The translations under genes and the position numbers were made by a program. 64,000 nucleotides of DNA from Desulfobacteraceae bacterium (lineage in GTDB: Bacteria; Desulfobacterota; Desulfobacteria; Desulfobacterales; UBA5616), in assembly GCA_013791935.1 (NCBI GenBank), contig VMSV01000023.1:4779-68778 (forward strand), written 5' to 3'. The notes beneath the pieces were generated by a model, which was not told the DNA's origin, did no database searches, and saw only the letters and a program-made list of their open reading frames with translations. Shown piece after piece: positions 12,088 through 31,355 of this stretch; positions within the stretch are counted from its first letter, which is position 1; every line of letters begins with the position of its first letter.

Positions 12088-12098
12088 GAGTATAAAAA

Positions 12099-14344: not shown

Positions 14345-15091
14345 TTAAGCTTCTCCAGCCAGAAGGGCTGCCCCCAAGGCTCCCACCCCCTGGGGGTATT
14401 CGGGAACCAGGATGTCCCGGCCCAGCAAGCCGGTCAGTAAATGCCGCATACAGATATTGTTTGCCACCCCGCCTGCAAATACCAGGGGATCTTCAAGGGA
14501 TACTCTTTTAAGCATGGTCGCAGACCGTTTGGCCACGGCCATGTGCAATCCCTTTGCAATTTCAAGGGGGCTCTCCCCCTTGGCGATCAGGGTGGTGACT
14601 TCCGACTCCGCAAACACCGTGCACATGCTGTTGATGGATAGATTTTTCTCGGCTTTCAAGGCTTCTGTTCCAAATTCTTCAATGGTAAACCCCAGGGCCC
14701 TGGCCATGATTTCAAGAAATTTTCCGGTGCCGGCCGCACACCGGTCATTCATTTCGAATTTCTTGACTTTTCCATTTTCAGAAAGGGCGATGGCCTTGGT
14801 GTCCTGGCCCCCGATATCAAGAACAGTCCTCGCATGGGGAAACAGTTCCCTTGCGCCTCGGGCATAGGCCTTGATTTCGGTAACCGTTGCCGCATCAAAG
14901 GAGATTTCAAAGAGGTTCCGACCATAGCCTGTGGCCATGATTCGATCGTATGGAACCTCTCTCAGCATGGCCCGGGCTTTGGCCATGGGGTCAAAGCCCG
15001 TGTCCTCCTGAATACTTTTTACAATTTTTCCCTTTTCAACCACCACCAGCTCAATGGACCGGGAGCCGATATCAATCCCAGCAAATTTCAT
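14345..15091 (-). CDS. BcrA/BadF/HgdC-type ATPase: activator of 2-hydroxyacyl-CoA dehydratase / DCCP reductase (DCCP-R-like)
   Basis: MKFAGIDIGSRS..., DIGGQDTK, and DRCAAGTGKFLE (cluster-bridging Cys motif). The ORF extends to 15118; Met at 15091 is preferred. Confidence 0.9.
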   Translation of the reverse strand: MKFAGIDIGSRSIELVVVEKGKIVKSIQEDTGFDPMAKARAMLREVPYDRIMATGYGRNLFEISFDAATVTEIKAYARGARELFPHARTVLDIGGQDTKAIALSENGKVKKFEMNDRCAAGTGKFLEIMARALGFTIEEFGTEALKAEKNLSINSMCTVFAESEVTTLIAKGESPLEIAKGLHMAVAKRSATMLKRVSLEDPLVFAGGVANNICMRHLLTGLLGRDILVPEYPQGVGALGAALLAGEA

Positions 15092-15101
15092 ACTCACTGT
15101 C

Positions 15102-16379
15102 CTATTTAAGCTGCTCAATAAAGGCTTCCAGACGGGTTTTCAACTGCCCGGCATCCTCCATACTGTAATCGGTTTCAATTCTCAGGGTGGGTATATTATT
15201 ATCTTCCAGGGCCTTTTCAATAGGCATGGATTCCATGAGGTAAGGCTGGCAGAACTGCAAACTGTAGTGAATCACCCCATCCGCCCGGTAGGTTTTGGCC
15301 ATCTCTTTGATGTGGCTCAACCGATCCGGGTTGGGCGTAAAGATGGCACAATCGACTTTAAAGTAACGATCCACAAGGGCTTCCATGAGCTCTTCCACCG
15401 TACGGCCGGAATCATTCGTCAGGTTTCGGGTTCCCCGCTCCCCTACGCAGGACTCTTCTCCCACAATCACAGCGCCGGACGATTCGATGAGCCAGGGCAA
15501 CTTCCAGTTGGGAACCGCCATGGGGCATCCGGACAGAAGGACTCTTGGTGTTTTTTCCGAAAATACCCCCTGCTTATTTTGAATTCGGATTTCCAGCTCA
15601 TCACAAATTTTATTCACGGATTCCGTAAAACGCTTGGGATTATCATAGAAAAAAACCTGGTTGGCCAGGAGCGCGTCCAGTCCGGAAATCGGCGCCGGGT
15701 TTTCTTTTCTCAGCAGAGAAAGCCGGTGAATGGCTTTTCGTTTGGCGTTCACCGTATCAATCCCTTGTTTTAAAGATTCAACCGTGATGGTTTTGCCGGT
15801 GAGGCTTTCAACAGCTTCCTTAAACCGGTAATATTCCTTCTTGAGCAATTCGCGACCCATGGGGGATTTCACCTGGGGAAGGTCCATGACATAGAGGTTG
15901 CTCACCAGATCTTTTAAGGTTTCATAGGCTTTTTTCTTCCCATCGCAGGTATTTTCGCCCACCACCATATCCGTGGCCTCAAGATAAGGGCATACCTTTC
16001 CCAGTTTGAAACCGAAGGAGGATTTGATCAGGGCGCAGGTGTTCCGGGGCACGTATTTTTCCACCTCTTCCATGGCGAAATCCGCCCCGGCACACAATCC
16101 CACTAGGGTAGCATTGGCGGCCAGGGCGATTTCCTCGGGAACAAACACGCAATAAGACCCGATGATCTTCCGGCCCTGATCCTTTTCATCCATCAATTCC
16201 TTGATCCGAAGCCCGTGCACCTCGCTCATGACAAAATCAAAATAGCCCATGCCTTCGGGACGGTCTTTTTGGGACAGGAAAATGTCCTGGTATCCTTTTC
16301 CCAACACATTCAGCAGCATATCATGGGCTTCTAAATCCAGCCCCAGCTTCTCCCACATGCTTTTGTAATCTTCGCTCAT
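15102..16379 (-). CDS. Double-cubane-cluster-protein (DCCP)-like member of the 2-hydroxyacyl-CoA dehydratase / benzoyl-CoA reductase BcrC/BadD/HgdB family
   Basis: 425 aa. The N-terminus reads YKSMWEKLGLDLEAHD...RPEGMGYFDFVMSEVHGLRIKEL. It carries conserved Cys (VGENTCDGKKK, SGCPM, EESCVGERG, LQFCQPY) and lies immediately upstream of an activator ATPase. Confidence 0.75.
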   Translation of the reverse strand: MSEDYKSMWEKLGLDLEAHDMLLNVLGKGYQDIFLSQKDRPEGMGYFDFVMSEVHGLRIKELMDEKDQGRKIIGSYCVFVPEEIALAANATLVGLCAGADFAMEEVEKYVPRNTCALIKSSFGFKLGKVCPYLEATDMVVGENTCDGKKKAYETLKDLVSNLYVMDLPQVKSPMGRELLKKEYYRFKEAVESLTGKTITVESLKQGIDTVNAKRKAIHRLSLLRKENPAPISGLDALLANQVFFYDNPKRFTESVNKICDELEIRIQNKQGVFSEKTPRVLLSGCPMAVPNWKLPWLIESSGAVIVGEESCVGERGTRNLTNDSGRTVEELMEALVDRYFKVDCAIFTPNPDRLSHIKEMAKTYRADGVIHYSLQFCQPYLMESMPIEKALEDNNIPTLRIETDYSMEDAGQLKTRLEAFIEQLK

Positions 16380-16531
16380 CAGTTCTCCTTGGATTCGTTT
16401 TTCGGAAAAAGAAAAATATCAGCCTTCTTTTCAGTTGTTGTTATACGAACTGAGGCACCAGATCCAATTCATTATGTGAATGCGTGTTGATCATCGTATT
16501 GAGTTGTTCTATCTTTCCGGTTGAAGGCGCC

Positions 16532-16939
16532 CTAAAACCCCTTTTCCGTGGCCAGGCAAAGTCTTCCGGCCCCGGCGGCCTTGGCCAGATCCATGACCTT
16601 CACCGCCTTGTTTAAGACCACGGCTCGGTCGGCCTTGATCACCACCAGCCGGTTCTTGTCGCTGCCGATCAGGTTCTTAAGCTCTTTGAACAGCCGGTCC
16701 AGGGGAACTTCCTTATCCATGAGAAAAGCCCTTCCCTCCTGGTCCACGTAAACGGTTATCTCCTGCTGGGTCTGGGGGGCGGCGGCCCGGGCCTGGGGCA
16801 GTTTGATCTTGATGCCTTCATCCACCATGAAATTGGTGGTGAGGAGAAAATAGATCAGCAGCATGAACACGATATCGATGAGGGAGGTCAGGGGCGTCTG
16901 AATCGAATAGGGTGCTCTTCTTTTAAATTTCAAAGACAT
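16532..16939 (-). CDS. exbD: ExbD/TolR biopolymer transport protein
   Basis: 135 aa with N-terminal TM PLTSLIDIVFMLLIYFL. Conserved periplasmic domain ...VVIKADRAV.... Confidence 0.9.
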   Translation of the reverse strand: MSLKFKRRAPYSIQTPLTSLIDIVFMLLIYFLLTTNFMVDEGIKIKLPQARAAAPQTQQEITVYVDQEGRAFLMDKEVPLDRLFKELKNLIGSDKNRLVVIKADRAVVLNKAVKVMDLAKAAGAGRLCLATEKGF

Positions 16940-16950
16940 GTTTTTCCCCT

Positions 16951-17556
16951 TTATCTTCTGAAGATAGCCGTCATGAAGGCCACGGCCCCTTCCTGAATCC
17001 GGGCTTCATAATTGTCCACCCGGGCCAGGAGATAACTATGAGCCACCATGGTGGGAAGGGCTACTGCAAGCCCCAGGGCCGTGGTGAGCATGGCCTCCCA
17101 GATCCCGCCAGCCAGGACCGCGGCATTAACTTTTCCGCCCATCTGCTGAATCACCATAAAAGCCTTGATCATCCCCATCACCGTGCCCAAAAGGCCCAAC
17201 AGGGGGGCGATATTGCCGACGGTGGCCAGGGCCTGAAGGTAGGTGGAAAGGTTTCGCACCTCCTCTTCCGTGGAATGGGTGATAACGGATTCCACGGTTT
17301 CCCGATCCTGGTCCCGCACCTGGATGGCTTTGGACAAAACCCGGCCCATGGGGGAATTGCTCTCGGTGAGCAATTGATCGATTTCCTGAATTTTACCCTC
17401 CTTCATGAAATCAATGGTTTTCTGGGCCAGCCCCGCACCCCTGGCTTTCATCTTGGCAAACCGGATGACCCGTTCCACAAAAATGGCCAGGGCCAGGACC
17501 GAACACAGAAGAATGGGGATCACCAGAATCCCGCCTTTGGCTAAAAAATCTAACAT
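16951..17556 (-). CDS. exbB: ExbB/TolQ/MotA proton-channel protein
   Basis: 201 aa. Motif APLLGLLGTVMGMIKAF, with 3 TM segments. Confidence 0.9.
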   Translation of the reverse strand: MLDFLAKGGILVIPILLCSVLALAIFVERVIRFAKMKARGAGLAQKTIDFMKEGKIQEIDQLLTESNSPMGRVLSKAIQVRDQDRETVESVITHSTEEEVRNLSTYLQALATVGNIAPLLGLLGTVMGMIKAFMVIQQMGGKVNAAVLAGGIWEAMLTTALGLAVALPTMVAHSYLLARVDNYEARIQEGAVAFMTAIFRR

Positions 17557-17580
17557 GGAATCACTCCTTTATTCATAGAA

Positions 17581-19386
17581 TCAATTGGTGGCTGTTGCCT
17601 GTTCCGTTTTCTTGCCCATGTCTTCCATCACATCGGCCTTGCCGTCATAGTCCAAATCCCGGTCCCGTTTCACCAGGGCCTCGGATTCGTCATAGGTTTC
17701 CCAAACATCCGCCTTGCCGTCGAAATTACTGTCTTCCTCCACGGTGTTCACCAAACCCTTGTCATAAAAAAACCACACATCCGGGTTGCCGTCCCCGTTG
17801 CCGTCCTTTTCCGCCTTAACGGCCTCCCCCCCGGGGTTGTAGGTCCACACCATGTTGAGCCTTCCTGTGCCGTCCTCATCTTTTTCACTTTTGGTCAAAT
17901 GGCCCTTGTCGTCATAATACTCCCGCTCATTGATGGTTCCGTTGCTTTCCGGATCGCTTTCCTTGATGCACAGGGTCTTGTCCTTGAAAAAGGACCTCAG
18001 CTCCGGGTTTCCGTCGCTGTTCTCATCCACCTCCAGGACGGTGGTCCATCCGGGTCGGTCGAACCACTGGACGGTTTCAAAATGGCCGTTGTCATCCATA
18101 TCCTTGATGAGTTTTTTCTTTTCCTCGTTTTGATAGAAAACTTTCAGATCCACGGCACCGTTTTCGTTTTCGTCCTTTTCCACCCGGACCAATCGACCGG
18201 CTTCGTAGTACTGCCAGGTGTCGGTCTTGCCATTGAAATCCGCGTCACTTTCCACCCGCTCTTTTTCTTCCTTTGGGTTAAAATAGATCCGGATATCGGG
18301 GTCCCCCTTTTTATCCTCATTCACGGTTTGGAGATAAAGCTTTGATTTTTTATAATGAGAAACGGTTTCAATAAACCCGTCCCCGTCCGCGTCGTATTCC
18401 ACCTTCACGGCCTCTCCGTCCTTGAAAAACCGGATGCGGTCGATCCGGCCGGTGAATCTGGAGTCTTCTTTCATTTCCTTTAAAACGCCCTGGACATCAA
18501 AGCTCAGGAATTGGTCCATGATATCGTCAAAGTTGGTGTCCTTTTCCTGGGAAAAGGGTTTTCCGTTCCGGAAGGCGGTAAACACATCAAACCTCCCATC
18601 GCCGTTGGTGTCCTTCTGCTGCTTGGAAGGCTGGCCGGAAAAAAAATCCGTTGCCGTATCCGTCTTTCCGTCCCCGTCCGAATCTTTTTTTTCCTGAAGA
18701 ATTTCACCCTTGCTGTAGGATCGGAATACTTCCATTTTGCCGTCTCCATTCAGGTCATGTTGGCTCTCACGGGGTTGCCCTTTGTCATCATACCACACCA
18801 CTTGTTCCACGGAGCCGTTGCCGTCGCTGTCTGATTTCTTCTCCACCGGCTTGTCATTTTTAAAGGTGATCCAGGTGTTGGGCTTTCCGTCCTCATCCGT
18901 GTCCCGGGTACAGGAGGCCAGCGCACCGGCCTGGTACAAATACCGGGTGTCCAGCTTCCCGTCTTCGGTGGTGTCTTTTTCCACGGTAAGCGGGCGCTCC
19001 TGCTCGTCAAACGTCACGCATTCGATCACTTTTCCCTTTGGGTTCAGTCTCTCCATGCGGACACGTTTTTCGTTTTTGAAGTAGTCGATTCCATCATTTT
19101 TCCCGTCAAAATCCGAATCCCGTTCCGCCCGGACCAGGACATTGTTCTCATAGTACTGGAACCGGTCCATTATTCCGTCCTGGTTGGTGTCGATATCGAA
19201 CTGCACTGCCTTGCCCGCACCATCAAAGTGGATGATCCGGTCGGTTTTGCCGTCGTTGTCCGTATCCTTTTCTACGGTTTTTGCGGAGGCTCCATGGGCC
19301 GGTTCAAGCCATACCGGGTTAAAAACCAAAGCCACGGCAAAGGCCCCACAAAGGATCGTGAATTTTTTTATCATTCTGTTTTTCAT
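17581..19386 (-). CDS. Secreted repeat protein with about 22 units of roughly 26 aa, each carrying a D-x-D-x-D-G-K-x-D (EF-hand/thrombospondin-type-3-like Ca-binding) motif
   Basis: Signal peptide MKNRMIKKFTILCGAFAVALVF...AHG. Repeated motifs include DTDNDGKTD, DSDFDGKND, DTDEDGKPN, DSDGDGKTD, DTNGDGRFD, DADGDGFIE, DSNFDGKAD and DLDYDGKAD. The gene sits between tonB and exbB. Confidence 0.7.
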   Translation of the reverse strand: MKNRMIKKFTILCGAFAVALVFNPVWLEPAHGASAKTVEKDTDNDGKTDRIIHFDGAGKAVQFDIDTNQDGIMDRFQYYENNVLVRAERDSDFDGKNDGIDYFKNEKRVRMERLNPKGKVIECVTFDEQERPLTVEKDTTEDGKLDTRYLYQAGALASCTRDTDEDGKPNTWITFKNDKPVEKKSDSDGNGSVEQVVWYDDKGQPRESQHDLNGDGKMEVFRSYSKGEILQEKKDSDGDGKTDTATDFFSGQPSKQQKDTNGDGRFDVFTAFRNGKPFSQEKDTNFDDIMDQFLSFDVQGVLKEMKEDSRFTGRIDRIRFFKDGEAVKVEYDADGDGFIETVSHYKKSKLYLQTVNEDKKGDPDIRIYFNPKEEKERVESDADFNGKTDTWQYYEAGRLVRVEKDENENGAVDLKVFYQNEEKKKLIKDMDDNGHFETVQWFDRPGWTTVLEVDENSDGNPELRSFFKDKTLCIKESDPESNGTINEREYYDDKGHLTKSEKDEDGTGRLNMVWTYNPGGEAVKAEKDGNGDGNPDVWFFYDKGLVNTVEEDSNFDGKADVWETYDESEALVKRDRDLDYDGKADVMEDMGKKTEQATATN

Positions 19387-19389
19387 GGG

Positions 19390-20106
19390 TCAGGTGGTCT
19401 CAAAAATGATGTTCAATTTCATGGGAATGTCGGACTTGAAAAATTTGAGAGGCGGCCTGGGAAAAGGCGCCGCGGTCTGCACAGCCTTCACCGCGGCCTC
19501 ATTCAGCACCTCATGCCGGCAGGGGGTCGCAATTTGAACCTCTTTGACTTCTCCTGCAATGGTCACCACAAAACTCACCGTCACCCGGCCCTGCTGCTGC
19601 AAGGACCGAGCGGATTCCGGGTAGCGTTTTGCGGATTCGATTTTCATCACCACCATTTCCAGGTAGCTTTTGGCATTCGTGTATTCCGCCCCCACATTGA
19701 GGAGATCCTCCATCTTGAATACCCCGGTGGTCTGGCCCATTCCGGCATCACTTTCAGGAATGCTGACCCCCTCCATTAACCCTTCCGCAAATTTTCCAGT
19801 GGGCGGATCCACGCTGATGGGCTTTACCGGTGCAATCCGATTGGGGGAAACGAAAATCTTCTTCACATCATGGGGCTGGTCCGGTTCCTTGGGCCGATGG
19901 GTAGGCCGGGGAATAGCCCGGTTGAAAGGCTTTCCGATGTCCTCCATGGTCAGTTCTATGAACTGAAGGGCTGCCTTGTTATAGAGCCCGGAGATATGTA
20001 AAAACAGTACAAAATGAATGGCGACGGAAACCAGAATCAGGCCCCGAAGCAGTTTATTGGGCTGTTTTTTGGGGGGAACAAATGCGTCCATGACCGTTGC
20101 TGTCAA
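19390..20106 (-). CDS. tonB: TonB energy-transducer protein
   Basis: N-terminal TM (LILVSVAIHFVLFL), a Pro-rich linker (IPRPTHRPKEPDQP), and a C-terminal TonB_C domain (GRVTVSFVVTIAGEVKEVQI...NEAAVKAV...PFPRPP). Confidence 0.9.
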   Translation of the reverse strand: MTATVMDAFVPPKKQPNKLLRGLILVSVAIHFVLFLHISGLYNKAALQFIELTMEDIGKPFNRAIPRPTHRPKEPDQPHDVKKIFVSPNRIAPVKPISVDPPTGKFAEGLMEGVSIPESDAGMGQTTGVFKMEDLLNVGAEYTNAKSYLEMVVMKIESAKRYPESARSLQQQGRVTVSFVVTIAGEVKEVQIATPCRHEVLNEAAVKAVQTAAPFPRPPLKFFKSDIPMKLNIIFETT

Positions 20107-20135
20107 AATTTATGCTTTCTTTTTCAGGGAAAAAC

Positions 20136-20180
20136 CCCCTCGCCTGCCGAACCCCGGAATCAAGTTCAACGGGCGAAGGG
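20136..20180 (-). terminator. Terminator-like hairpin between the interrupted receptor gene and tonB
   Basis: On the minus strand, CCCUUCGCC...GGCGAGGGG forms 9 bp (one G-U) with a long loop, followed by GUUUUUCC. Confidence 0.3.
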
Positions 20181-20191
20181 TTTCAAATCCA

Positions 20192-22363
20192 TCAGAATGA
20201 TGCTTTCATGGAAACTCCGTAAACCCTTCCAGGCATGGGGTACCCGTAAATCTCCTGGTATTCCTCACCCAGCACATTGCCCACAAAAAAGTGAGCTTTG
20301 AGGTTTTCCCGGAATTCATATTCCATGCCCACATCCACGGTGATGAAATCATCCAGGGTGTAGACATTGCCTTCGCTTTCCCGTTTGCCTACATACCGGA
20401 TATCGGATGTGAGCAGCGTTTTATCCCAGATACGGTACCGCAAGCCCAGGTTGGCCTTGTGTTCCGGTGCAATCTCCAATAAAATGGGGCTGACATCAAG
20501 GTCGGCGCCACTTGCATTTTTAAAATAAAGTTCTTCTTCATCGTAATCGGTTTTCCGGTAGGTGTAATTCCCGAAAAAGGTCAGCTTGTCCGACCATACG
20601 CTGTTAAATTCCATTTCCACACCGTAGAAAATGATCTCATTCATGTTAAAGCCATAAGTGCTCTCCGCATGGAAGGTATCCGCCGCATTGGCCACGATAT
20701 AGTTACTTACGTCAATGTAATAAAAATTCACCCGAGTTTCCAATTTCTCCATGGGACGGTGAAACACGCCTAAATCATAATGCCAACTGGTTTCCGTTTT
20801 GATTTCATCGCCTTTATTAACTGAGCCGAAACTGGCCCAAGCAGAGCGATCTCAGCACCCCGGGACATGGTAGTCCCTGTTCACGGAAACAAAAAGTTCC
20901 GTATCCGGATTGAACCGGTAGGTCAGGGTGGATTTGGGAAGCCATTCCACGGTTTTCAGCAGATGACGCACCGAGGGAGAACTGGCCGTTTCCTTGTATT
21001 CATAGGTCCATTCCCGAATGTGGGCGTATCGCAGTCCGTAAAACGCAGACCATTTCGGGGTGAAGTTAAAGGTGTCCTCGCCATATAGTGCGTTCATCCG
21101 CCATACATCGGGTTTGTTTTCAACCTCCATGCGGCGCTGATCATATCCTAAAATCAGGTTATGGTTTTCCCACTGATCGAAAATCGTTTGGAATCGACCG
21201 CCCTTCTGGGCTTCCTTTCGACCTTCGCCACCGCTGAAATAGGGCTCTAGTTTCAATTCGCCAGGATCAACAACTCCGTCTCCATTGCCATCCCCCTTAA
21301 CTGCCCGGTAATAGAAGGCATCCTCCTGGCCGGCGCTTTTGTACAATTGGAACTTGAGTCGAACATTCTTTACCGGTTGCTCATAGGCCAGATCCATGTG
21401 CCGGGCGCTCTTGTTCTTGTAATTGTCGCCTCCCGGGAAGGAGGTGTACCGGTAACGCCTCACCGTATCCGAATCCTGCCTCACGATCGGGTAATCCGGA
21501 TCATAAAGATCTTTGACCAACAAGGTGCTGGCCGGATCCTTTGGGTTAACCTTCAGGGTGCAATCCGGATCATTGACCACAGCAAATCCGTGTTCCATCT
21601 GAGATCCCTTGAGCCCCAGGGTTAAATTCCCTTCAAAGGGAAACAAATAATTCACCCTGGTGGAATAATCGTACCCTTGATAATCATTATTCAACAGATA
21701 GCCGTCGGATTCCTTGTACCCGTAATTCATAAAATATCCCAGGTCGCCCGCGCCGCCATCCACGGTCGCCCGGCCCACAAAGGAGTTGAACCGGGAATAA
21801 TCCGTGGTGAGATTGATATCGGGCCTCAGGGTCTCCTTCTTCTTGCCTTTTTTGGTGATGATGTTGATAATGCCGCCCTGGGAGTTCTCATACTGGGCCG
21901 ATGCGGCCCCCCGAATGACTTCGATTTTTTCGATGTCTCCGGTGGTGAGGCTGGACCAGTCCACGTAGGTGTCGGCCCCGGCAGTGGGCCCGGTGATGGT
22001 CCTCCCGTCAATGGCGATGGTGAACCGGCTGTCGTCAAATCCCCGCATCATGACCATCTGCTGGGGATCGGCTCCGGAGGTTCCGCGAAGCACGTCGATT
22101 CCGGTGAGGTGCATGAGGATATCCTCCACCCGGTCCACGGACCCGCTCTTGTTGAATTTTTCAATATCAATCACGGTTTTTGTGGGGGTGATGGTGACAG
22201 CCCCGCCGTAAAAGGCCGTCACGAAAATATCCCCCAGGTCAATGGCCTCGGATTTTGGACAATCCGGGCAATCCTCCTTTTCGGGCTCTGCAAATGCCAA
22301 AGGCGTCAGAATCATCCATCCCAACAACCAGCAGCAAATCAGAGCGGTTTTAGCCACTTTCAT
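20192..22363 (-). CDS. TonB-dependent receptor interrupted by one in-frame TGA at 20852..20854 (Sec/read-through candidate, or nonsense pseudogene)
   Basis: ORFs 20852..22363 (signal peptide, plug, N-terminal barrel) and 20192..20767 (C-terminal barrel ending in ...MKASF) are in the same frame, separated by TGA plus 27 sense codons. Confidence 0.8.
20821..20854 (-). other. In-frame UGA plus downstream hairpin (candidate SECIS-like element; unproven)
   Basis: UGA-GAUCGCUCUGC-[UUGGGCC-AGUUUC-GGCUCAG]. The stem is 7 bp including 2 G-U pairs and starts 11 nt after the UGA. Confidence 0.3.
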
Positions 22364-23376
22364 CTGTTTTTACCTCCTTCTCCTCTCTCGTTGTCATTTT
22401 CTTTTGGTTCGGGCAAATAACGGTAATCCACAAAATTCCCCACCGGAACTACTTCCGGCAGGAATTTCATCTGAATCATCATGGCCTGCTGCCGATCAAT
22501 CTGTTCTTCCGATTCCCGGCCGTCATTGAACTCCCGAAGGGCGGATTTCATCGCCACATCCATTTCCACCCCGGCATACTTGGGAATCCATTTCCGGGCT
22601 TCCGTTTCGTGGTTTCGAATAAAGTCAAAGGCCTCCACCAGTCCCCTTAAAAAAGCCCGGACATTTTCAGGGTGCTCAGCCAGATACTCATCCGTAAAAA
22701 ACAGCCCGCTGAAAATAAAACCCGGGATGGCATCGTTAAACGATGTCAGAAGCCTGCTCGCACCATGCATCTCCAGCATGGTCGCTGTGGGATCTCAGGC
22801 CACAATAACATCCACCCCCTTGGACCTTAAAGCCGCCTCATGCTTCATGGCATCATCCAGGCGGATCCCCTTGATGCAATGAACATCCTCACGGGTAAGC
22901 CCGGCTTTTTTCAAGGTTTCGGCAATCATCATGGCCGTGGTGAAGGACCCGGATTCCGCCACCCTGGTGCCTTTTAAATCGTAAATCGTGTGAATGCCGC
23001 TTTTTTGGTCCACATGGAGCCCGCAGCGTGTTCCTTTATGGGCATGGCCCAGCCAAACCACCACCTTGATGGGGATATTCCTCAACCCGGCGTGGAAGGC
23101 TGAGCCCATTTCCAGGTGCCCGGCTTGAATATCCCCGTGGAGGGCGGCTGCAATGATATTCTGCTCCCCCACCAGCCGGACCAGCTCCACATCAAGACCG
23201 TTCTTCTTCCAGAAGCCTTTCTCAATGGCCACATACAGGGGAAGATCATCTATACTCCGGCCATAGGTCACCTTCATGGTTTCTGTGGCTCCCACCGAAA
23301 CCATGGAAGTAAGGACCGCCAGTCCCACGATAAGTCCAAACGGAAGAATCCTCTTCAAACCCGCTCCATGTTTCAT
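22360..23376 (-). CDS. NMT1/THI5-SsuA/TauA-like periplasmic substrate-binding protein (NitT/TauT ABC family) interrupted by one in-frame TGA at 22795..22797
   Basis: Signal peptide MKHGAGLKRILPFGLIVGLAVLTS. ORFs 22795..23376 and 22360..22779 share a frame and are separated by TGA plus 5 codons. The stop overlaps the receptor start (ATGA). Confidence 0.75.
22762..22797 (-). other. In-frame UGA plus downstream hairpin (candidate recoding or re-initiation element; unproven)
   Basis: UGA-GAUCCCACAGCG-[ACCAUGC-UGGAGAU-GCAUGGU]. The perfect 7-bp stem starts 12 nt after the UGA and contains two in-frame AUGs. Confidence 0.3.
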
Positions 23377-23409
23377 TTCTGCTTTCTTCCTCTTTCATTG
23401 CGCCACCAC

Positions 23410-23480
23410 GTAGGATGGGTGAAACCCATCAACATAGCCGCCATTCCTTTTCATTTTTTGATGGGTTTCACCCATCCTAC
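23410..23480. repeat. Perfect 23-bp inverted repeat (25-nt spacer) in the permease/binding-protein intercistronic region
   Basis: GTAGGATGGGTGAAACCCATCAA ... TTGATGGGTTTCACCCATCCTAC. Each arm is itself a 7-bp palindrome (GATGGGT-nnn-ACCCATC). The right arm overlaps the permease stop codon. Confidence 0.85.
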
Positions 23481-24244
23481 CCGATTCCCGCCATGGAGGT
23501 CTCCGTGTGCCAGGATAAGACCCTTTTCTGCACCAGCCGCGCAACGCGGTCCAGAAAAAACCCCATCAGAGAGATGACGATGATTCCGGCAAACATCCTG
23601 TCTGTCGCAAAGGTTCTCTGGGCGTCTATCACCAGAAACCCGATTCCCGAATCCGCAGCCAGCATTTCCACCCCCACAATGGAGAGCATGGACATGGCCG
23701 TTGAAATTCGCATGCCCGTGATAATGGAGGGCATGGCGGAAGGAATCAGCACCATGGTCCACAGCCGCCGCCCCTCTGCGCCCAAAGACCGGGCGGCCTG
23801 GACCAGCCTGGCATCCACCCCCTTGATTCCGGCGATGGTGTTGATCACTATGGGGAAAAAGCAACCCTTGACGATGATGGCGGTTTTAGAAGCGTTTCCG
23901 ATGCCGAACCACACAAACATCACCGGAACCAGAGCGAAGGTGGAGATGGGCCGGATCAGCTCGATGAGGGGATCGAAAATCGTTTCAAAAATCCGGGACC
24001 AGGCCACCAGCAGGCCGATGAACAGGCCCAGCACCGCGGCAATCAGGTAACCTGAAAGCGCCCTTAGAATGCTGATGCCCACATGGGGAAAGATCTCCCC
24101 GGTGATGGTCATACCCCAGAGGGAGGTGAGCATGGCGCTGGGGGTGGGCAGAAAAAAGGGATCGATAAGGCCGGCCCTTCCGATCATTTCGCAGATGAGA
24201 AGAACGCCAAGGGGAGACAATGTTTTCCGCCAGTTGATTGTCAT
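23477..24244 (-). CDS. ABC transporter permease (NitT/TauT family, BPD_transp_1)
   Basis: Six TM segments with an EAA-like loop (GIKGVDARLVQAARSLGA). The Met at 24244 (MTINWRK) overlaps the ATPase stop (ATGA). The ORF-track N-terminal extension is rejected. Confidence 0.85.
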   Translation of the reverse strand: MTINWRKTLSPLGVLLICEMIGRAGLIDPFFLPTPSAMLTSLWGMTITGEIFPHVGISILRALSGYLIAAVLGLFIGLLVAWSRIFETIFDPLIELIRPISTFALVPVMFVWFGIGNASKTAIIVKGCFFPIVINTIAGIKGVDARLVQAARSLGAEGRRLWTMVLIPSAMPSIITGMRISTAMSMLSIVGVEMLAADSGIGFLVIDAQRTFATDRMFAGIIVISLMGFFLDRVARLVQKRVLSWHTETSMAGIG

Positions 24245-25011
24245 GGGTTTGCTTCCGATACTTCCTTCCACACCATCTGGCGCAGATCCTTTTCTATGGT
24301 TTTGAATTCCGGTAAAAACAGCGTTTCCCGGGTCCTGGGCCGAGGCAGGCCAACCGGAATATCCGCAATGATTTTTCCAGGCCTGCGGCTCATGATCAGC
24401 ACCCTGTCCGAAAGGTAGATGGCCTCGCTGATACTGTGGGTTACAAACAGAACCGTGCATTTGGCTTGCTGCCAGATGTTGAGCAGTTCCGCCTGCATCA
24501 TCTCCCGGGTCAGGGCGTCCAAGGCTCCGAAGGGCTCATCCATGAGCAGTAAAGACGGGTTATTGGCCAGGGCCCTGGCAATGGCCACCCTTTGTTTCAT
24601 CCCTCCGCTGAGTTCATGGGGGTATTGGTTTTCAAAAGCCTTAAGCCCCACCAGATCCATCAAATGGTAGGATATTCTTTTTTGTTCTTCCGAATCCTTC
24701 CCCCGAACCTTGGGGCCGAACTCAATATTTTTCCGGACCGTTTTCCAGGGAAACAACAGGTATTCCTGGAAAACAATGGCCCTTTCGGGGTCCGGACCCA
24801 GAATTTTTCGGCCTTTAAAAAGGATTTCTCCTTTTGTGGCTTTTTCCAGGCCGGCGGCCATGAGCAGAAACGTGGATTTGCCGCATCCGCTGGGCCCTAT
24901 GATGGACACGAATTCATTTTTTTCCACGCACACATTCAGGTCGGAAAGAGCTGTGATTTGCCTTCGTTTGCTGAACGCCTTTCCAAGTCCCCTTGCTTCG
25001 ATGAAGGCCAT
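24241..25011 (-). CDS. ABC transporter ATP-binding protein (NitT/TauT family)
   Basis: Walker A GPSGCGKST, signature LSGGMKQRVAIARAL, Walker B LLLMDEPFGALD. Confidence 0.95.
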   Translation of the reverse strand: MAFIEARGLGKAFSKRRQITALSDLNVCVEKNEFVSIIGPSGCGKSTFLLMAAGLEKATKGEILFKGRKILGPDPERAIVFQEYLLFPWKTVRKNIEFGPKVRGKDSEEQKRISYHLMDLVGLKAFENQYPHELSGGMKQRVAIARALANNPSLLLMDEPFGALDALTREMMQAELLNIWQQAKCTVLFVTHSISEAIYLSDRVLIMSRRPGKIIADIPVGLPRPRTRETLFLPEFKTIEKDLRQMVWKEVSEANP

Positions 25012-25012
25012 C

Positions 25013-26167
25013 TCATTTTTCCGCCAGAATCTGTTCGATAAAGGCTTCGATTCTAACCTTCAGCTGGCCGATGTCCGACTGGGAGTAATCCGTGACCACG
25101 TGGAGGAAGGGAATCCCGTGCTTTTCCCGGACCAGCTCTCCCACCCGATAGGACTCGATGTTGAAGGCGTGGCAGGACTGCCAGGTGAGATCGATGACCC
25201 CGTCGATGTTGAAGTCCCGAATGAGCAAATCAATGTCGTCAAAACGGGTGTTGTTGGGAGTCATGCAGGAACAGGTCACCCGAAGATACCGCTCGGCAAT
25301 GGCGTCCAAAGGATCTTTGGTTTCATCGATGGGGTCGTTTAAACGGGTAACCCCGCCGCATCCTTCCTGGCAGACCACCACTCCGCCGCATTCTTCCACC
25401 AGGCGAAGAACTTTATCACACCCCAGGGAGTTACCCAGGCCGGTCCAGAGAATTCTGGGACGTTTTGCATCGCAGGCCGCGTAACCGGTTTCAATGCGCC
25501 GGGTCAGCTCGCTTAATATGGATTCGAGATTTCGATGATAGTCGGTTCGATCCACCGTGTATCCGGTTTTGGTGGATACGGCCACCAGGTCCAGACCCAT
25601 GATGGGAGGCGGCTGGACCTTTCGGCATTCATGGATGGCCTTTAGAAGTGCCCTTTCCTTGTTGCCCCGGGCGATGGCTTCCCGCAATGAAGTTTCTGTA
25701 ATCTTGACATCAAGCTGGTCTTCAATGAAAGCTTTAAGCTTTTCGATCTCCCCACGCCAGTGAATTTTGGCTTCCGGCTCCTCCGGTCTTTGGGGAAGAT
25801 CCATCACATGCATGGTTTTTTCCCGGGCCAGCAGCTCGTACATTTTTTTCCGGCCGTCACAGGTGGTTTCGCCCACAATGACATCCGCCAAAGGGAAGAT
25901 CGGACAGGTGTTGTTGATGGCCCGACCGTAGGTGGCCTTCACCATGGGACACTGATCGGCGGGAAGAACTTTTTCCGCTGCTTCGATGGGACCTTCGGTG
26001 GTGCCGCAGAGTCCAACGGAAATGGCCCCGGCCGCCCAGACAATTTCCCGCGGAAAGTAAGAACACAAGGACCCGACAACTTTTTTGCCCTCATCTTTGG
26101 CCATTTCCAACTGCTGGGCGAAATTGGTTTTTACCTCATCAATTTTCTGATTGACTTTCAGTTCCAT
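25013..26167 (-). CDS. 2-hydroxyacyl-CoA dehydratase / BcrC-BadD-HgdB family protein (shorter DCCP-like paralog), first gene of the ABC/receptor operon
   Basis: 384 aa. Shares Cys-containing blocks with 15102..16379 (VGETTCDGRKKMYE, CQEGCGG, LTWQSCHAFN). It ends with ...QLKVRIEAFIEQ, like the paralog (QLKTRLEAFIEQ). Confidence 0.75.
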   Translation of the reverse strand: MELKVNQKIDEVKTNFAQQLEMAKDEGKKVVGSLCSYFPREIVWAAGAISVGLCGTTEGPIEAAEKVLPADQCPMVKATYGRAINNTCPIFPLADVIVGETTCDGRKKMYELLAREKTMHVMDLPQRPEEPEAKIHWRGEIEKLKAFIEDQLDVKITETSLREAIARGNKERALLKAIHECRKVQPPPIMGLDLVAVSTKTGYTVDRTDYHRNLESILSELTRRIETGYAACDAKRPRILWTGLGNSLGCDKVLRLVEECGGVVVCQEGCGGVTRLNDPIDETKDPLDAIAERYLRVTCSCMTPNNTRFDDIDLLIRDFNIDGVIDLTWQSCHAFNIESYRVGELVREKHGIPFLHVVTDYSQSDIGQLKVRIEAFIEQILAEK

Positions 26168-26455
26168 GGTTTCATCCTTTTCTAATCAGACCTCGAAAAA
26201 AACGCTAAGATTGCACTCCAAAATGGGCATATCAGGAATTCGTGTAACAGAAAGAGAGCAATATATCTAGAATCAGGATAGGTCAAATTGATAATTCTGA
26301 TATGACTTAAGCTCTGGATAGCCTTTTTCGATTATATGTTATTCCCAAAAGTTCAACCCCTCATTCTGGACCTTTTTTCCTTTTGATTCAAAACCCGGAA
26401 TATGCGATAGACACCTAAAGAATGAACCCCCCTTTGGATTTGGAGAAATCAGAAT

Positions 26456-27030: not shown

Positions 27031-27636
27031 TCAACCCCCGGCGCAGGCCCGGCAGAGGTTTTTGCCGTTTTTTTTCTGAAGTTTGGTCCCCATGACCCCC
27101 TCCCTGCAGAAATCGCAGGGAACCGAGGGGGCGATCTGCGCTCTGGCCGGCAGTTCCACGTTCACCTTCTGAACCGTAAAAAGCTTTTCTTCCGGCAGGG
27201 TCAAAACATCCCCGGTTCTTTTCAAATGCAGGCCGTCAAAGGCTTTCCTGTCGTTTTCATCCGCGGTTCCGCTGGTTATTTTCTGGATCAGGGCCATGTG
27301 GGCCGGGTCCGGCTTAAATGCATCGGGTTTCAAGACCACGCGAACCCCCTCGCCGGTATTTCGGGATAAAAGCGTTACGGCCACTTTTCCGTGGTCTTTA
27401 TAGATGAAATTGCCCTTGCCGAAGGTGCATCCGGTGAGAACCTGGATGGCGTCGGCGCAGCAGGCATCGGTTTCCACGATTGCAACGATTTCCTCGTCTT
27501 CGCTCCGCAGGGCATTCAATCTTTCCATGGCTGTTTTGGCGGCCCGAAAGCCCATGGAAAGACCCGGGCATAAATGACCGTGGAATTCCACACATTTTCT
27601 GAAATCTTCACTGTCCATAATTTCTTCTGCGCTCAT
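27031..27636 (-). CDS. FmdE/FwdE-family protein with a C-terminal zinc ribbon
   Basis: FHGHLCPGLSMGFRA...ETDACCADAIQVLTGCTFGKGN. The C-terminus reads CDFCRE...CRAC. Confidence 0.85.
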   Translation of the reverse strand: MSAEEIMDSEDFRKCVEFHGHLCPGLSMGFRAAKTAMERLNALRSEDEEIVAIVETDACCADAIQVLTGCTFGKGNFIYKDHGKVAVTLLSRNTGEGVRVVLKPDAFKPDPAHMALIQKITSGTADENDRKAFDGLHLKRTGDVLTLPEEKLFTVQKVNVELPARAQIAPSVPCDFCREGVMGTKLQKKNGKNLCRACAGG

Positions 27637-27646
27637 TATTTACTCC

Positions 27647-28747: not shown

Positions 28748-28763
28748 CGGGGTCTCCTTGTTT

Positions 28764-29516
28764 TTATACCGGCACCACCACCTGATGGCCGCCGATGTCT
28801 TGGAGAAGAACATTGACGTCATAGACTTCACTGATGATTTCAGAGGTTAGCCCTTCCTTTGGCACCGCCGCGTGAATGCTGTTGTTTTTCATAAAAACAA
28901 ACCGGTCGGCAAACCGGAGCGCCGTGTTTAAATCATGAATGGCCACCACGGCAGCCAACTGCTGTGTATCCACAATCCTTCGAATCAGGCCCATGACGTC
29001 CAATTGGTTTTTCAAATCCAAATTGCTGGTGGGTTCATCCAATAGCAGTATTCCAGGGCTCTGGGCAAGGGCCCTGGCAATCCCTACCTTTTGCATCTCG
29101 CCGCCGCTTAAATCGCTCACGGGTCGCATGGCCAGCTGGGCCAGGCCGATTTCCTGAAGGATCCTCTCCACCAGGAGGTAGTCGGTTTGTTGCACGCTCC
29201 ATTGGATATGGGGCTTGCGGCCCAGGAGCACCGCTTCAAAAACCGTCAGGGACGTTTCCGGATGGCGCTGGGGCACATAGCCCATGATTCGGGCGATCTG
29301 CTTCCTGCCGAGAGAAAGAAGATTTTCTTCCCCGACCATGACGTTGCCTTTTCCGGCTTTCAGTATCCGGTTCAAGCATTTCAGCAGGGTGGATTTCCCT
29401 GCTCCGTTCACTCCCAGAATACACATCATCTGACCCGGATTCAGGTGAAAACGGATATCCGACAACACGGGGTGGCTATTGTAGGAAAAACAAATATCCC
29501 TCACCACCAGTTTCAT
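28764..29516 (-). CDS. ABC ATP-binding protein (FepC/FecE/BtuD type)
   Basis: Walker A GVNGAGKSTL, signature LSGGEMQKVGIARAL, Walker B ILLLDEPTSNLD. Confidence 0.95.
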   Translation of the reverse strand: MKLVVRDICFSYNSHPVLSDIRFHLNPGQMMCILGVNGAGKSTLLKCLNRILKAGKGNVMVGEENLLSLGRKQIARIMGYVPQRHPETSLTVFEAVLLGRKPHIQWSVQQTDYLLVERILQEIGLAQLAMRPVSDLSGGEMQKVGIARALAQSPGILLLDEPTSNLDLKNQLDVMGLIRRIVDTQQLAAVVAIHDLNTALRFADRFVFMKNNSIHAAVPKEGLTSEIISEVYDVNVLLQDIGGHQVVVPV

Positions 29517-31344: not shown

Positions 31345-31355
31345 GCTCTTCTCCC

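Follow-up and report, generated by a model that had tools for sequence, protein, structure and literature searches.

The locus described here raises the question of why an import route from the outer membrane to the cytoplasm is encoded in one row with two double-cubane reductases, and what this route carries. The window, i.e., the whole stretch of 64 kb that was analyzed, belongs to a sulfate-reducer-type bacterium.

Organization of the locus

The row lies on the minus strand, and the genes, their order and, essentially, their coordinates are those of an earlier sequence-only reading. The first gene of the conserved core encodes a double-cubane-cluster reductase (DCCP1, 25013..26167; PF06050, NF040772). 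It is followed by an ABC ATPase of the NitT/TauT group (24241..25011; PF00005), a permease of 255 aa (23477..24244; PF00528), a periplasmic binding selenoprotein of 338 aa with the NMT1/SsuA fold (22360..23376; PF09084) and a TonB-dependent receptor of 723 aa, also a selenoprotein, with plug and barrel domains (20192..22363; NF049946). TonB (19390..20106; PF03544, TIGR01352), a secreted 601-aa protein with Asp-rich, DxDxDG-like repeats (17581..19386), ExbB (16951..17556; PF01618) and ExbD (16532..16939; PF02472) come next. The row ends with a second double-cubane reductase (DCCP2, 15102..16379) and an HgdC/DCCP-R-type ATPase, the sole activase in the window (14345..15091, alternative end 15118; BcrAD_BadFG, PF01869 with 175 bits, TIGR00241 with 231.8 bits).

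The two HGD-D proteins are genuine double-cubane reductases, as had been supposed from their likeness to DCCP. DCCP1 scores 480 bits and DCCP2 473.6 bits against NF040772 (cutoff 350); DCCP1 also scores 370 bits against PF06050 and matches PDB 7YYL/6ENO with E = 5e-81. All seven cysteines are present in each protein. Their spacing predicts Cys35, 54, 73, 103, 266, 299 and 332 as cluster ligands in DCCP1, and Cys77, 96, 115, 145, 311, 344 and 377 in DCCP2.

Upstream of DCCP1, the motif ATTATCAATTTGAC (26282..26295, minus strand) overlaps a -35-like TTGAC and is a candidate promoter or operator. Without mismatch, it occurs once in the window. The same 14-mer is found upstream of the operon in two related loci (L015 and L025), and about ten other loci contain ATTTGAC variants. 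On the plus strand, a lipoprotein with two Oxidored_molyb-like domains and the lipobox LLSC (11047-12087) and a second TonB receptor (12099-14219) converge on the row. Next to the row lies a regulator pair, namely a sigma54 activator (7130-8518) and a Cache/PAS histidine kinase (8515-10719). The convergence and the regulator pair had both been recognized before.

Two selenocysteine codons

Nothing in the locus is more informative than its two conserved selenocysteine (Sec) codons. Gene callers break both the binding-protein and the receptor gene at an in-frame UGA, and the sequence-only reading had considered that these might be nonsense mutations, i.e., that the row was the relic of a decayed operon. 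The comparative data refute this explanation, to which we give practically no weight. The binding-protein UGA (Sec194, 22795..22797, minus strand) is TGA in all 42 related loci. The receptor UGA (Sec504, 20852..20854, minus strand) is TGA in 14 of 15 orthologs, with TGC in L019, and also in three metagenome loci (L048, L049 and L053). These loci come from different families, with protein identities down to about 40%. Beyond the UGA, the frames are intact and conserved: the PF09084 match runs across it in the binding protein, as do the plug and barrel domains in the receptor. About 90 database homologs of the binding protein stop exactly at residue 193, and about 90 receptor homologs terminate at the UGA. 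Other homologs have Cys at the same position, e.g., some seven full-length binding proteins (P0002-P0007, P0010). Moreover, the receptor falls into a family that NCBIfam curates as selenoproteins, "TonB-dependent receptor, CU motif-type" (NF049946, 1155.6 bits, cutoff 700).

A SECIS-like hairpin follows each codon on the minus strand. In the binding-protein gene, (A)CCAUGC-UGGAGAU-GCAUGG(U) (22762..22782), identified by folding and codon comparison, begins 13 nt past the UGA. Among 41 distinct sequences, the synonymous sites of its codons are fixed (NCC in 40, CTG in 39, NNG and CAT in all 41), whereas the conserved residues flanking it use all their codons. In the receptor gene, the hairpin UGGGCC-AGUUUC-GGCUCA (20822..20839) was identified by folding and ortholog comparison. 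Divergent orthologs have a hairpin of another sequence at the same distance from the UGA, with G-rich loops, and the Cys-form ortholog in L019 has none. The single-sequence folds are unexceptional (z = -0.6 and -1.2), and the support for the hairpins is comparative. By these comparisons, both UGAs are selenocysteine codons and not damage.

Conservation of the neighborhood

The gene arrangement is no chance adjacency: five independent contigs from metagenomes or MAGs carry the identical locus, and more than 40 loci of other taxa repeat the order of the core. These core loci belong to Desulfobacterota, SAR324 and one Myxococcota MAG; cultured carriers include Desulfosarcina variabilis Montpellier (L032) and Desulfofustis glycolicus DSM 9705 (L026). 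DCCP1, ATPase, permease and Sec-containing binding protein are colinear in 31 of the 34 loci that could be judged; the DCCP1 orthologs are 57-79% identical, with the ABC genes directly downstream. The activase lies directly before DCCP1 in most relatives (19 of the 31 colinear loci). The reverse test, anchored on DCCP1 in metagenomes, agrees: an uptake system adjoins wherever the downstream sequence suffices. The same ABC genes follow in seven of nine judgeable loci, and in the other two (L046 and L047) a TonB/BtuF-type importer with FecCD follows instead. This importer is Sec-free, so DCCP1 is not tied solely to Sec-bearing transporters. Judged by gene order, the functional link between the import route and the DCCP reductases, which the sequence-only reading had suggested, holds.

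Only the core of DCCP, activase and ABC genes is broadly conserved. The earlier expectation of a conserved neighborhood thus stands for this core and fails for the Sec-containing receptor, TonB and ExbB/ExbD, which are confined to the subclade of the window. TonB orthologs lie inside the cluster in eight loci (L007, L009, L013-L015, L017, L018 and L053), and orthologs of the Asp-rich protein, with 45-54% identity, adjoin TonB/ExbB/ExbD in eight loci. The repeat protein matches no Pfam family at cutoff and shows a weak match to the Lsa25.6 adhesin. DCCP2 and activase orthologs are found in L019 (78%) and L046 (77%); as a pair at the end of the row, they recur in one other locus of the genome scan (L019).

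Predicted binding sites

The binding protein matches no NCBIfam model at cutoff (SsuA_fam 105.8 against 163.5, SaoX 52.2 against 300). An AF2 model of its Cys homolog P0002 (pLDDT 90.6) has 4NMY, 3KSX, 6SSY and 2X26 as top Foldseek matches. Sec194 aligns with a Glu in generic NMT1 binding proteins. His113, Cys118 and His121, in the motif HxHxGTxCGxH, are invariant across 25 family members, and the fold topology suggests that they lie near Sec194. The receptor contains a Cys-Sec dipeptide (PGC-U504-D). In the AF2 model of the Cys-form receptor P0126, the corresponding CC dipeptide starts the loop between strands 13 and 14, which strand parity assigns to extracellular loop 7 in this model. A further Cys pair (CPDC, residues 32-35) lies between the signal peptide and the TonB box of the receptor, and Cys pairs adjoin the TonB box at receptor N-termini. 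The permease has no selenocysteine; its Cys128, His54 and His246 are conserved among 45 orthologs.

Comparison with the SAO system

The sequence-only reading knew of no described pathway with this architecture. Precedents do exist, namely the NCBIfam CU-motif receptor model and the SAO system of Haft and Gwadz, an ABC importer of the nitrate/sulfonate/taurine type whose binding proteins and permease contain selenocysteine (bioRxiv 10.1101/2022.07.06.499078; J Bacteriol 2023). The latter is the closest described system and is taken by its authors to handle organometallic or heavy-metal traffic (bioRxiv 10.1101/2022.07.06.499078). By analogy, the Cys and Sec residues of the present module could capture Hg, Cu, Ni, Co, Cd, a thio-anion of Mo or W, or a metal-carbon compound, which would be reduced or dismantled by the DCCPs after import. 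This is possible, but we consider it rather doubtful. SaoA is the best curated match of the ATPase (259.7 bits, cutoff 360), the permease fits SaoP (164.1 bits) as well as TauC (164.3 bits), both under cutoff, and the binding protein is a distant relative of SaoX with Sec in the same UxP context. Furthermore, soft metals are classically bound by CU and CC motifs, the His2-Cys-Sec set of the binding protein resembles a metal site, and OprC, a known thiolate-using copper receptor, is among the structural matches. Metal-type neighbors also occur: L015 encodes a Mop-domain protein and the P0004 locus a NikR-like gene, the window has an FmdE/BtuF/FecCD cluster besides the YedY-like lipoprotein, and DCCP1 is paired with the chelate-type importer in L046 and L047. 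Nevertheless, the module does not qualify as an SAO system. None of the signature genes (MerB-like SaoL, SaoB, SaoE, SaoC, SaoT, SaoD) turned up, and no Sao model is matched at its cutoff. The genes conserved with the module include no metal efflux pump and no metal-specific regulator, and its recurrent neighbors traffic selenium and sulfur rather than serve metal homeostasis. NMT1-fold binding proteins typically take small anions or organics, not free metal cations.

Selenium-handling genes in related loci

In about a quarter of the loci, YedE/YedF-type genes adjoin the module. YedE (TIGR04112), YedF (TIGR03527), Se_S_carrier (PF11823) and a Carb_kinase-like gene flank it in L007, L008, L015, L016, L034, L035 and L040, and in L016, L034, L035 and L040 these genes come immediately after it on the same strand. 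The locus of the Cys variant P0004 encodes on one strand a DCCP, an activase, a DCCP, an Aminotran_5 protein (NifS/Sec-lyase family), YedF, Se_S_carrier, the ATPase, the permease, the binding protein and a molybdopterin oxidoreductase. Periplasmic PhsA/PsrA-like molybdoenzymes with NapH-like partners lie inside the cluster in L009 and L018. In Slackia, STRING links YedE, YedF and DUF3343 to partners that include an activase as well as HGD-type subunits beside selA, selB and selD (PMC5322559).

Proteins such as YedE/YeeE, TusA-like proteins and DUF3343 work on sulfur, too, and the hosts are sulfur-cycling Desulfobacterota. Together with the PhsA/PsrA-like reductases and a binding protein nearest to SsuA/TauA (TIGR01728, 105.8 bits; Foldseek 3KSX, 6SSY, 2X26), this would suit the import of polysulfide or S(0), thiosulfate, a sulfonate or a thiol, bound via S-Se or S-S and cleaved reductively at C-S or S-S by a DCCP. 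We regard such a cargo as improbable. The YedE neighbor belongs to the selenium-linked TIGR04112 (484.7 bits) and scores just 36 bits against the thiosulfate transporter TsuA, and the score for the sulfonate-binding family is under cutoff. Sulfide is plentiful for sulfate reducers, which makes an energized TonB route hard to rationalize, and the invariant use of Sec points to a trace, high-affinity target. The sulfonates and thiamine precursors proposed before as substrates are unlikely because of the His/Cys/Sec pocket and the selenium-handling neighbors.

The DCCPs might alternatively be service enzymes that keep the Cys/Sec sites of the transporter or an acceptor reduced, or that build a selenium cofactor, the transporter merely supplying them. 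This includes a formal possibility raised by Haft, a selenium-bridged double-cubane. DCCP and SelD co-occur tightly (according to the literature, SelD-containing genomes hold 955 of 970 strong NF040772 proteins), the YedE/YedF row of L007 and L008 contains the activase, and the P0004 locus has its DCCP genes next to those for NifS-like, YedF and Se_S_carrier proteins. However, the DCCPs have no signal peptide and their homologs are cytoplasmic, so a periplasmic protein or an extracellular loop is out of their reach. Sequence comparison of the DCCP1 orthologs revealed no Sec and no other special feature. The service role is quite improbable as an explanation of its own, and it overlaps with selenium import rather than excluding it.

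Proposed pathway

Selenium capture is the best reading because relatives place YedE, YedF, Se/S-carrier, NifS-like and PsrA-like genes beside the module. The row would form one acquisition pathway from the outer membrane to the cytoplasm for a scarce, thiophilic cargo, most likely a selenium species, followed by processing by the DCCPs; we hold this to be about evenly balanced. The cargo, e.g., Se(0) or polyselenide, a selenotrisulfide-type adduct or a small selenium anion, would be gripped by Cys and Sec ligands instead of the usual polar pocket. It would first meet the vicinal Cys and Sec residues at the foot of extracellular loop 7, and TonB-ExbB-ExbD would energize its passage through the receptor. 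On the periplasmic side, the Cys pair by the TonB box may take it over. The NMT1-fold binding protein would then receive it with Sec194, in place of the usual Glu, and His113, Cys118 and His121, and the NitT/TauT-type permease and ATPase would import it. In the cytoplasm, DCCP1 and DCCP2, which would receive electrons of very low potential from the HgdC-type ATPase, would reductively release or convert the cargo and hand selenide to YedF, the DUF3343 Se/S carrier, a NifS-like lyase and SelD.

Several points speak against a selenium cargo. A selenium importer that itself requires Sec is hard to bootstrap when selenium runs short, and Cys variants, although they occur, are rare. The clustering of selenoprotein genes with selenium-supply genes may reflect no more than their consumption of selenium. 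The window contains no yedE, yedF or selD, and their adjacency concerns only part of the loci. In addition, some neighbors hint at Mo/W or other metals, and Haft and Gwadz interpret the related SAO system in terms of metal traffic.

A transporter dedicated to selenium is not known from any organism (PMC11097638). If the proposed pathway is correct, the module would provide high-affinity selenium scavenging for organisms with large selenoproteomes.

Gene content and conservation of the module

The gene row at 14345-26167 (minus strand) is firmly supported as a conserved and functional import module that depends on selenocysteine (Sec) and has a cytoplasmic partner, namely double-cubane cluster protein (DCCP) and its activase. 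It is equally firmly supported that, in the clade of the window, this module has been extended to the outer membrane by a Sec-bearing TonB-dependent receptor. The eleven genes described in the sequence-only reading were all found, in the order proposed there. The row starts with DCCP1 (25013-26167; NF040772, 480 bits, cutoff 350), followed by an ABC ATPase (24241-25011; PF00005), a permease (23477-24244; PF00528) and an NMT1/SsuA-type periplasmic binding protein (SBP; 22360-23376; PF09084). The outer membrane part consists of the TonB-dependent receptor with plug and barrel domains (20192-22363; PF07715 and PF00593), TonB (19390-20106; PF03544, TIGR01352), a 601-aa Asp-rich repeat protein (17581-19386; no family above cutoff), ExbB (16951-17556; PF01618) and ExbD (16532-16939; PF02472). 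DCCP2 (15102-16379; NF040772, 473.6 bits) and the HgdC-type activase (14345-15091; TIGR00241, 231.8 bits) close the row. An identical locus occurs in five independent contigs, including the NCBI MAG GCA_018900255.1.

Conservation was studied in an SBP-anchored scan with one genome per species, which yielded 40 loci. The hosts belong to Desulfatiglandales, Desulfosarcina, Desulfonema, Desulfobacula, Desulfofustis, Desulfovibrionaceae, Syntrophobacteraceae and SAR324, and include a Myxococcota MAG. Among the loci with enough upstream sequence, DCCP1, ATPase, permease and SBP are colinear in 31 of 34. The activase lies directly upstream of DCCP1 in 19 loci and elsewhere in the cluster in several others. 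When metagenome contigs were examined from DCCP1 as the anchor, as a reverse test, these ABC genes came next in seven of the nine loci that could be judged. The linkage of import and DCCP genes proposed earlier is, on both counts, clearly not an adjacency confined to this genome. Two or more cultured strains carry a variant of the module, among them Desulfosarcina variabilis Montpellier, at about 1,904,900-1,910,000 of NZ_CP159846.1, and Desulfofustis glycolicus DSM 9705.

Two variants can be distinguished by the gene that follows the SBP. In the clade of the window (SBP identity to the window's protein of 57% or more), it is a CU-type Sec receptor (13 loci), often accompanied by TonB, the repeat protein, ExbB and ExbD. 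In the second variant (SBP identity 41-48%; 18 loci), the place of the receptor gene directly after the SBP is taken by a conserved secreted protein, about 150 aa long and equipped with a signal peptide. It has no Pfam or NCBIfam match and was found at 40-64% identity in loci of the range L022-L042 (e.g., L032 10914-11423 and L027 10879-11346). A different layout was seen in the remaining two loci of the reverse test, L046 and L047: here, the genes after DCCP1 encode a receptor without Sec, a radical-SAM protein and an importer of the BtuF/FecCD type. This arrangement resembles the second transport cluster of the window (27031-33500). The DCCP1 ortholog in these two loci has 73% identity, with its activase alongside.

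The repeat protein consists of many DxDxDG-like units and has a weak match to the Lsa25.6 adhesin. Its orthologs (45-54% identity, 8 loci) always occur with TonB, ExbB and ExbD, and this constant company suggests that it is an accessory of this TonB system.

Upstream of DCCP1, the minus-strand sequence ATTATCAATTTGAC (26282-26295) overlaps a -35-like TTGAC, and half of it resembles a Fur-type ATTATCA half-site. The identical 14-mer is present upstream of the operon in L015 and L025, two loci of different clades, and ATTTGAC variants occur in about ten more. The element could be a strong promoter with an operator. Because of the NtrC-type neighbour, a sigma54 promoter was also sought upstream of DCCP1; the interval 26168-26455 had no match, and matches to the pattern show no enrichment across the window. 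With Rfam at the gathering threshold, no ligand-naming riboswitch was found in the window and 11 related loci. The only match was an unrelated cobalamin riboswitch in L015 (17487-17669, 103.5 bits), located after the TonB gene, where its target is presumably the following operon.

Surroundings of the row

The flanks agree with the earlier description: the row faces, in convergent orientation on the plus strand, the genes of a lipoprotein that has two Oxidored_molyb-like domains and of a second receptor, and a sigma54 activator and a Cache/PAS kinase sit beside it. The convergent pair spans 11047-14219; the lipoprotein has the lipobox LLSC and its two domains in tandem, and its partner is a heme/B12-like TonB receptor. 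A copy of the lipoprotein (56% identical) is found just upstream of DCCP1 in L006 (5397-6311). The window is unusually dense in two-component and hybrid sensor kinases (1763-10719, 35813-40428 and 59188-62219). Two dCache kinases and the sigma54 activator adjoin the uptake island, and the module also has kinase genes at its flanks in L006-L008, L024 and L047.

Just beyond an EF-P-like gene, a second TonB/ABC uptake cluster occupies 27031-35786 on the minus strand. It encodes an FmdE-domain protein (27031-27636), a BtuF-like binding protein (27647-28831), an ABC ATPase (28764-29516), a FecCD permease (29513-30580), a SAM methyltransferase (30565-31344), a third receptor (31356-33500; 248 bits to the CU-type model, without Cys at the CU site) and a second Peripla_BP_2 protein (34587-35786). 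Two MTHFR-family genes, an MvhD/FlpD-like protein and a 1398-aa HdrA/NfnB-like flavoprotein-ferredoxin fusion (51429-55625) are located at 50152-57693 and 63246-63980. These genes form a set typical of Desulfobacterota of the Wood-Ljungdahl type, with no apparent relation to the uptake module.

Selenocysteine codons

The SBP and receptor genes each contain one in-frame UGA (22795-22797 and 20852-20854, respectively), and the Pfam domains run on across both. In the protein collection, about 90 SBP homologs (40-82% identity) all end exactly with the residue that precedes the UGA. Cys occupies the UGA position in about seven full-length homologs, and the homologous proteins P0002-P0007 and P0010 read VTCDPVATMLEMHGASR; generic NMT1 proteins have Glu there. 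At the DNA level, the codon is TGA in 42 of 42 loci from other genomes, and the frame downstream is intact and conserved.

A hairpin, CCAUGC-UGGARNN-GCAUGG, starts 13-14 nt downstream of the SBP codon. It corresponds to what is sought in a bacterial SECIS element, i.e., a stem-loop shortly after the UGA with a G in the apical loop. The synonymous sites of its codons are frozen across 41 distinct sequences (NCC 40/41, CTG 39/41, NNG 41/41, CAT 41/41), and the G of NNG is kept throughout though the encoded amino acid varies. For the equally conserved residues that flank the hairpin (Asp, Pro, Ala and Ser), all codons are in use. The frozen sites thus point to a constraint at the RNA level, of the kind expected of a bacterial SECIS. 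Since the stem is invariant, it offers no covariation.

The receptor carries the motif PGC-U-D. Of 15 orthologs, 14 have TGA at the Sec position and one has TGC, and about 90 receptor homologs in the databases are truncated at this point. Divergent orthologs have a hairpin at the same distance but of different sequence, and the Cys form has none. The receptor scored 1155.6 bits (cutoff 700) against NCBIfam NF049946, "TonB-dependent receptor, CU motif-type", and has the Cys-Sec dipeptide.

On this comparative evidence, both UGAs are predicted with confidence to be selenocysteine codons. The alternative raised in the sequence-only reading, that they are nonsense mutations in pseudogenes, is ruled out by the conserved TGA, the Cys homologs and the hairpins. 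No further Sec codon was found in the activase, permease, TonB, ExbB, ExbD or repeat protein genes, and the permease and its 45 orthologs have no in-frame stop. No sel genes lie within the 64-kb window. These codons have consequences for annotation: the SBP family has no curated model and is truncated in its roughly 90 database entries, and gene callers split the receptor in two.

Position of the Cys and Sec residues

Natural Cys homologs, P0002 for the SBP and P0126 for the receptor, were modelled with AlphaFold2. The P0126 model (pLDDT 83.5) has 22 barrel strands. Its CC dipeptide (458-PGCC-461) is at the start of a 23-residue loop between strand 13 (445-456) and strand 14 (480-493). Strand parity, and the alternation of turns of 2-5 residues with long loops, place the CC/CU loop of the model outside the cell, as extracellular loop 7. 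From the topology of FepA, we take this to be the loop that bears the Cys pair in FepA and PfeA, and a weak alignment agrees with the placement. The general features of TonB receptors are also present: a plug, the 22-strand barrel of the model and a putative TonB-box-like DLGDIFVTA.

In the Sec receptor, a CPDC motif (residues 32-35; 22259-22270, minus strand) is located between the signal peptide and the TonB box, i.e., on the periplasmic side. Comparable N-terminal Cys pairs (CIEC, CPEC, CxxxC, repeated KCPPG..C) are found in most Sec-type receptor homologs and are absent from the Cys-form P0126. The other two receptors of the window have no Cys at the CU position.

The P0002 model (pLDDT 90.6) shows the SsuA/TauA/ThiY/PqqT fold. 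Sec194 of the SBP falls at the end of the strand at the second inter-domain crossover, and the invariant H113, C118 and H121 are in the loop after the first crossover strand. Judging from the fold topology, the two segments should line the base of the ligand cleft.

The double-cubane cluster proteins

Double-cubane cluster proteins are nitrogenase-like, ATP-driven reductases of very low potential that are widespread in anaerobes and include E. coli YjiM. We know of no physiological substrate for them. Both proteins of the window pass the cutoff of the family model NF040772, and DCCP1 matches the solved Carboxydothermus hydrogenoformans DCCP (7YYL/6ENO) with E = 5e-81. The seven family cysteines are found in DCCP1 (C35, 54, 73, 103, 266, 299 and 332) and in DCCP2 (C77, 96, 115, 145, 311, 344 and 377). 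Their spacing is within one residue of the published pattern, except for the long central gap, which spans 162 residues in DCCP1 and 165 in DCCP2 compared to the published range of 166-170. The partner ATPase expected of the family is present in the form of the activase at 14345-15091. By their sequence signatures, DCCP1 and DCCP2 are assigned to the double-cubane cluster proteins, and the cluster and ATP-dependent reduction are predicted. They share the family, the seven cysteines and the HgdC-type ATPase partner with C. hydrogenoformans DCCP/DCCP-R (6ENO, 7YYL; Jeoung and Dobbek 2018). In contrast to that system, there are two paralogs (384 and 425 aa), and they are embedded in a transport operon. 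A Sec residue in DCCP1 was considered owing to an apparent split at Cys260 in L030 and L033 and was rejected: L030 has a frameshift, L033 an internal deletion, and neither has a TGA.

Comparison with known transport systems

As described by Haft and Gwadz (bioRxiv 2022.07.06.499078; J Bacteriol 2023), the selenocysteine-assisted organometallic (SAO) system, known from Clostridioides difficile and other anaerobes, comprises a NitT/TauT-type ABC importer. Sec is present in its binding protein SaoB (CU) and its permease SaoP, and in occasional cases also in SaoX, which has the NMT1 fold. Both systems have a nitrate/sulfonate/taurine-type ABC importer with Sec or Cys in substrate-contacting parts, and both occur in strictly anaerobic hosts, Deltaproteobacteria included. 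Both also have an NMT1-fold binding protein, with Sec in a UxP motif in SaoX (2026 review) and in U-D-P in the window's SBP. However, all Sao models scored below cutoff (SaoA 259.7 against 360, SaoP 164.1 against 295, SaoX 52.2 against 300), which rules out membership in the SAO system. The window's permease lacks the Sec that SaoP has at its gate. DCCP and activase are obligatory operon members here (31/34 loci), whereas 40% of SAO loci have an NF040772 protein within 5 kb (Haft and Gwadz). The Sec-bearing TonB receptor and TonB/ExbBD are an addition, and the neighbours are YedE, YedF and a Se/S-carrier, not a metal efflux pump. SaoB, the MerB-like SaoL, SaoE, SaoC, SaoT and SaoD are absent from the row 14345-26167, where every ORF was assigned to another family, and were not found among the clustered flanks of the 40 loci. 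A Pfam scan gave no MerB-like match in the rest of the window.

Assignment of the SBP to the SsuA/TauA sulfonate/taurine binding proteins was likewise rejected (TIGR01728 105.8 against a cutoff of 163.5, TIGR01729 34 against 304); the fold alone is shared. The receptor, with its defining Cys-Sec dipeptide, is a clear member of the CU-type family NF049946. Sister models exist for PUIUD, PCPU and FCYXU receptors, the last type being reported from Desulfosarcina sp. BuS5 by deep-Sep (PMC12013277). In the literature searched, no published account was found of the genomic context of CU-type receptors, of the dipeptide in loop 7 or of the pairing with a Sec-SBP and DCCP, and no paper combined double-cubane proteins, selenocysteine and TonB.

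The PQQ uptake pair PqqU-PqqT (9C4O, 9B1U) is alike in that a TonB-dependent receptor feeds an NMT1-fold ABC binding protein, and both proteins were among the structural matches. Its cargo, however, is an organic cofactor held by polar and aromatic contacts, with neither a Sec/Cys ligand nor a cytoplasmic reductase. The Mer-type thiol relay (MerP, MerT, MerA) and the copper receptor OprC resemble the module in soft-ligand capture and hand-over by Cys pairs across the envelope. They offer a working parallel to a possible relay that would lead from the CU dipeptide via the CxxC pair to Sec/Cys, although the families are unrelated except for the generic receptor fold of OprC, and neither selenocysteine nor DCCP occurs there.

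Association with candidate selenium-trafficking genes

Clustering of all flank ORFs of the related loci revealed a set of four genes: YedE (TIGR04112, 484.7 bits), YedF (TIGR03527), a PF11823 "Se/S carrier-like" protein and a Carb_kinase-like protein. The set adjoins the module in seven loci (L007, L008, L015, L016, L034, L035 and L040), in four of them directly downstream on the same strand. In L007 and L008, the activase is part of the YedE row. This row is divergent from the DCCP1 operon and is headed by an Opr-family porin (L007 5558-6787, L008 5570-6799), followed by YedE, YedF, Se/S-carrier, kinase-like protein and activase. In L015, a Mop-domain (molbindin-like) ORF (5683-6090) lies between yedE and the activase. 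YedF alone was found in L019, L024, L038 and L046-L049.

The locus of P0004, a Cys-type SBP, encodes on one strand DCCP, activase, DCCP, an Aminotran_5 protein (NifS/Sec-lyase family), YedF and Se_S_carrier, then the ATPase, permease and SBP, and a molybdopterin oxidoreductase. TAT-signal PhsA/PsrA-like molybdoenzymes with NapH-like partners are inside the cluster in L009 and L018; the window has neither such enzymes nor such partners. A scan of 10 ORFs from the regions flanking YedE-bearing loci yielded no selD.

In the selenium gene island of Slackia, activase and HGD-type subunits are among the partners of YedE/YedF/DUF3343 (Lin et al. 2015, PMC5322559), and DCCP/DCCP-R were drawn among the selenium-linked neighbours of methyl-selenide gene clusters (2023 preprint). 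Many related loci have these candidate selenium-trafficking genes (PMC5322559) in physical linkage with the module. Yet yedE, yedF, Se_S_carrier and related genes are absent from the window, and they are not known to have been connected to an ABC/TonB importer before.

Proposed mechanism and cargo

The most likely mechanism is a ligand-exchange relay for a thiophilic species with subsequent reduction in the cytoplasm. The species would be captured by the Cys-Sec pair in loop 7 of the receptor, passed to the receptor's periplasmic Cys pair, then to the Sec/Cys/His pocket of the SBP and on to the ABC permease. After import, DCCP would carry out an ATP-driven reduction.

That the cargo is a selenium species has close to an even chance. 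Selenium is favoured on two grounds: no extra genes other than those of selenium trafficking recur beside the module, and DCCPs track SelD, with 955 of 970 strong NF040772 proteins found in SelD-containing genomes (Haft and Gwadz). Several points speak against it. A Sec-dependent selenium importer poses a bootstrapping problem, not all loci show the linkage to YedE/YedF, two DCCP1 orthologs have a chelate-type importer as their partner, and several neighbours have a metal flavour. A soft metal or an organometallic compound, in the sense of the SAO system, is a rather unlikely cargo, and a sulfur species is improbable.

Significance

Parts of this picture are not new: a curated model exists for the receptor family, and the general idea that Sec-assisted ABC import is linked to DCCP has been published. 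Within the reach of the tools used, the core of five obligatory genes (activase, DCCP, ATPase, permease and Sec-SBP) is new, as are the SBP selenoprotein family and its coupling to a CU-type TonB receptor with TonB/ExbBD. The same holds for the predicted placement of the CU dipeptide in extracellular loop 7 and for the finding that genes for YedE, YedF, Se/S-carrier and NifS-like proteins are physically linked to the module.

The module offers a concrete, testable hypothesis for two open questions, one of which is the function of DCCPs. DCCP and activase are operon-linked to an importer whose two substrate-contacting proteins are Sec-coded, this arrangement is kept across dozens of taxa, and in relatives its genes are interspersed with those for YedE, YedF, Se/S-carrier and NifS-like proteins. 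According to a 2024 paper (PMC11097638), no organism is known to have a dedicated selenium transporter. It is possible, if still tentative, that the module is the first dedicated high-affinity pathway of selenium acquisition, leading from Sec receptor to Sec SBP, with DCCP as the ATP-driven reductase that mobilises imported selenium to selenide for SelD. If true, this would explain the near-confinement of DCCPs to SelD-containing genomes. If the cargo is a soft metal instead, SAO-type "Sec-assisted transport" would be extended to the Gram-negative outer membrane.
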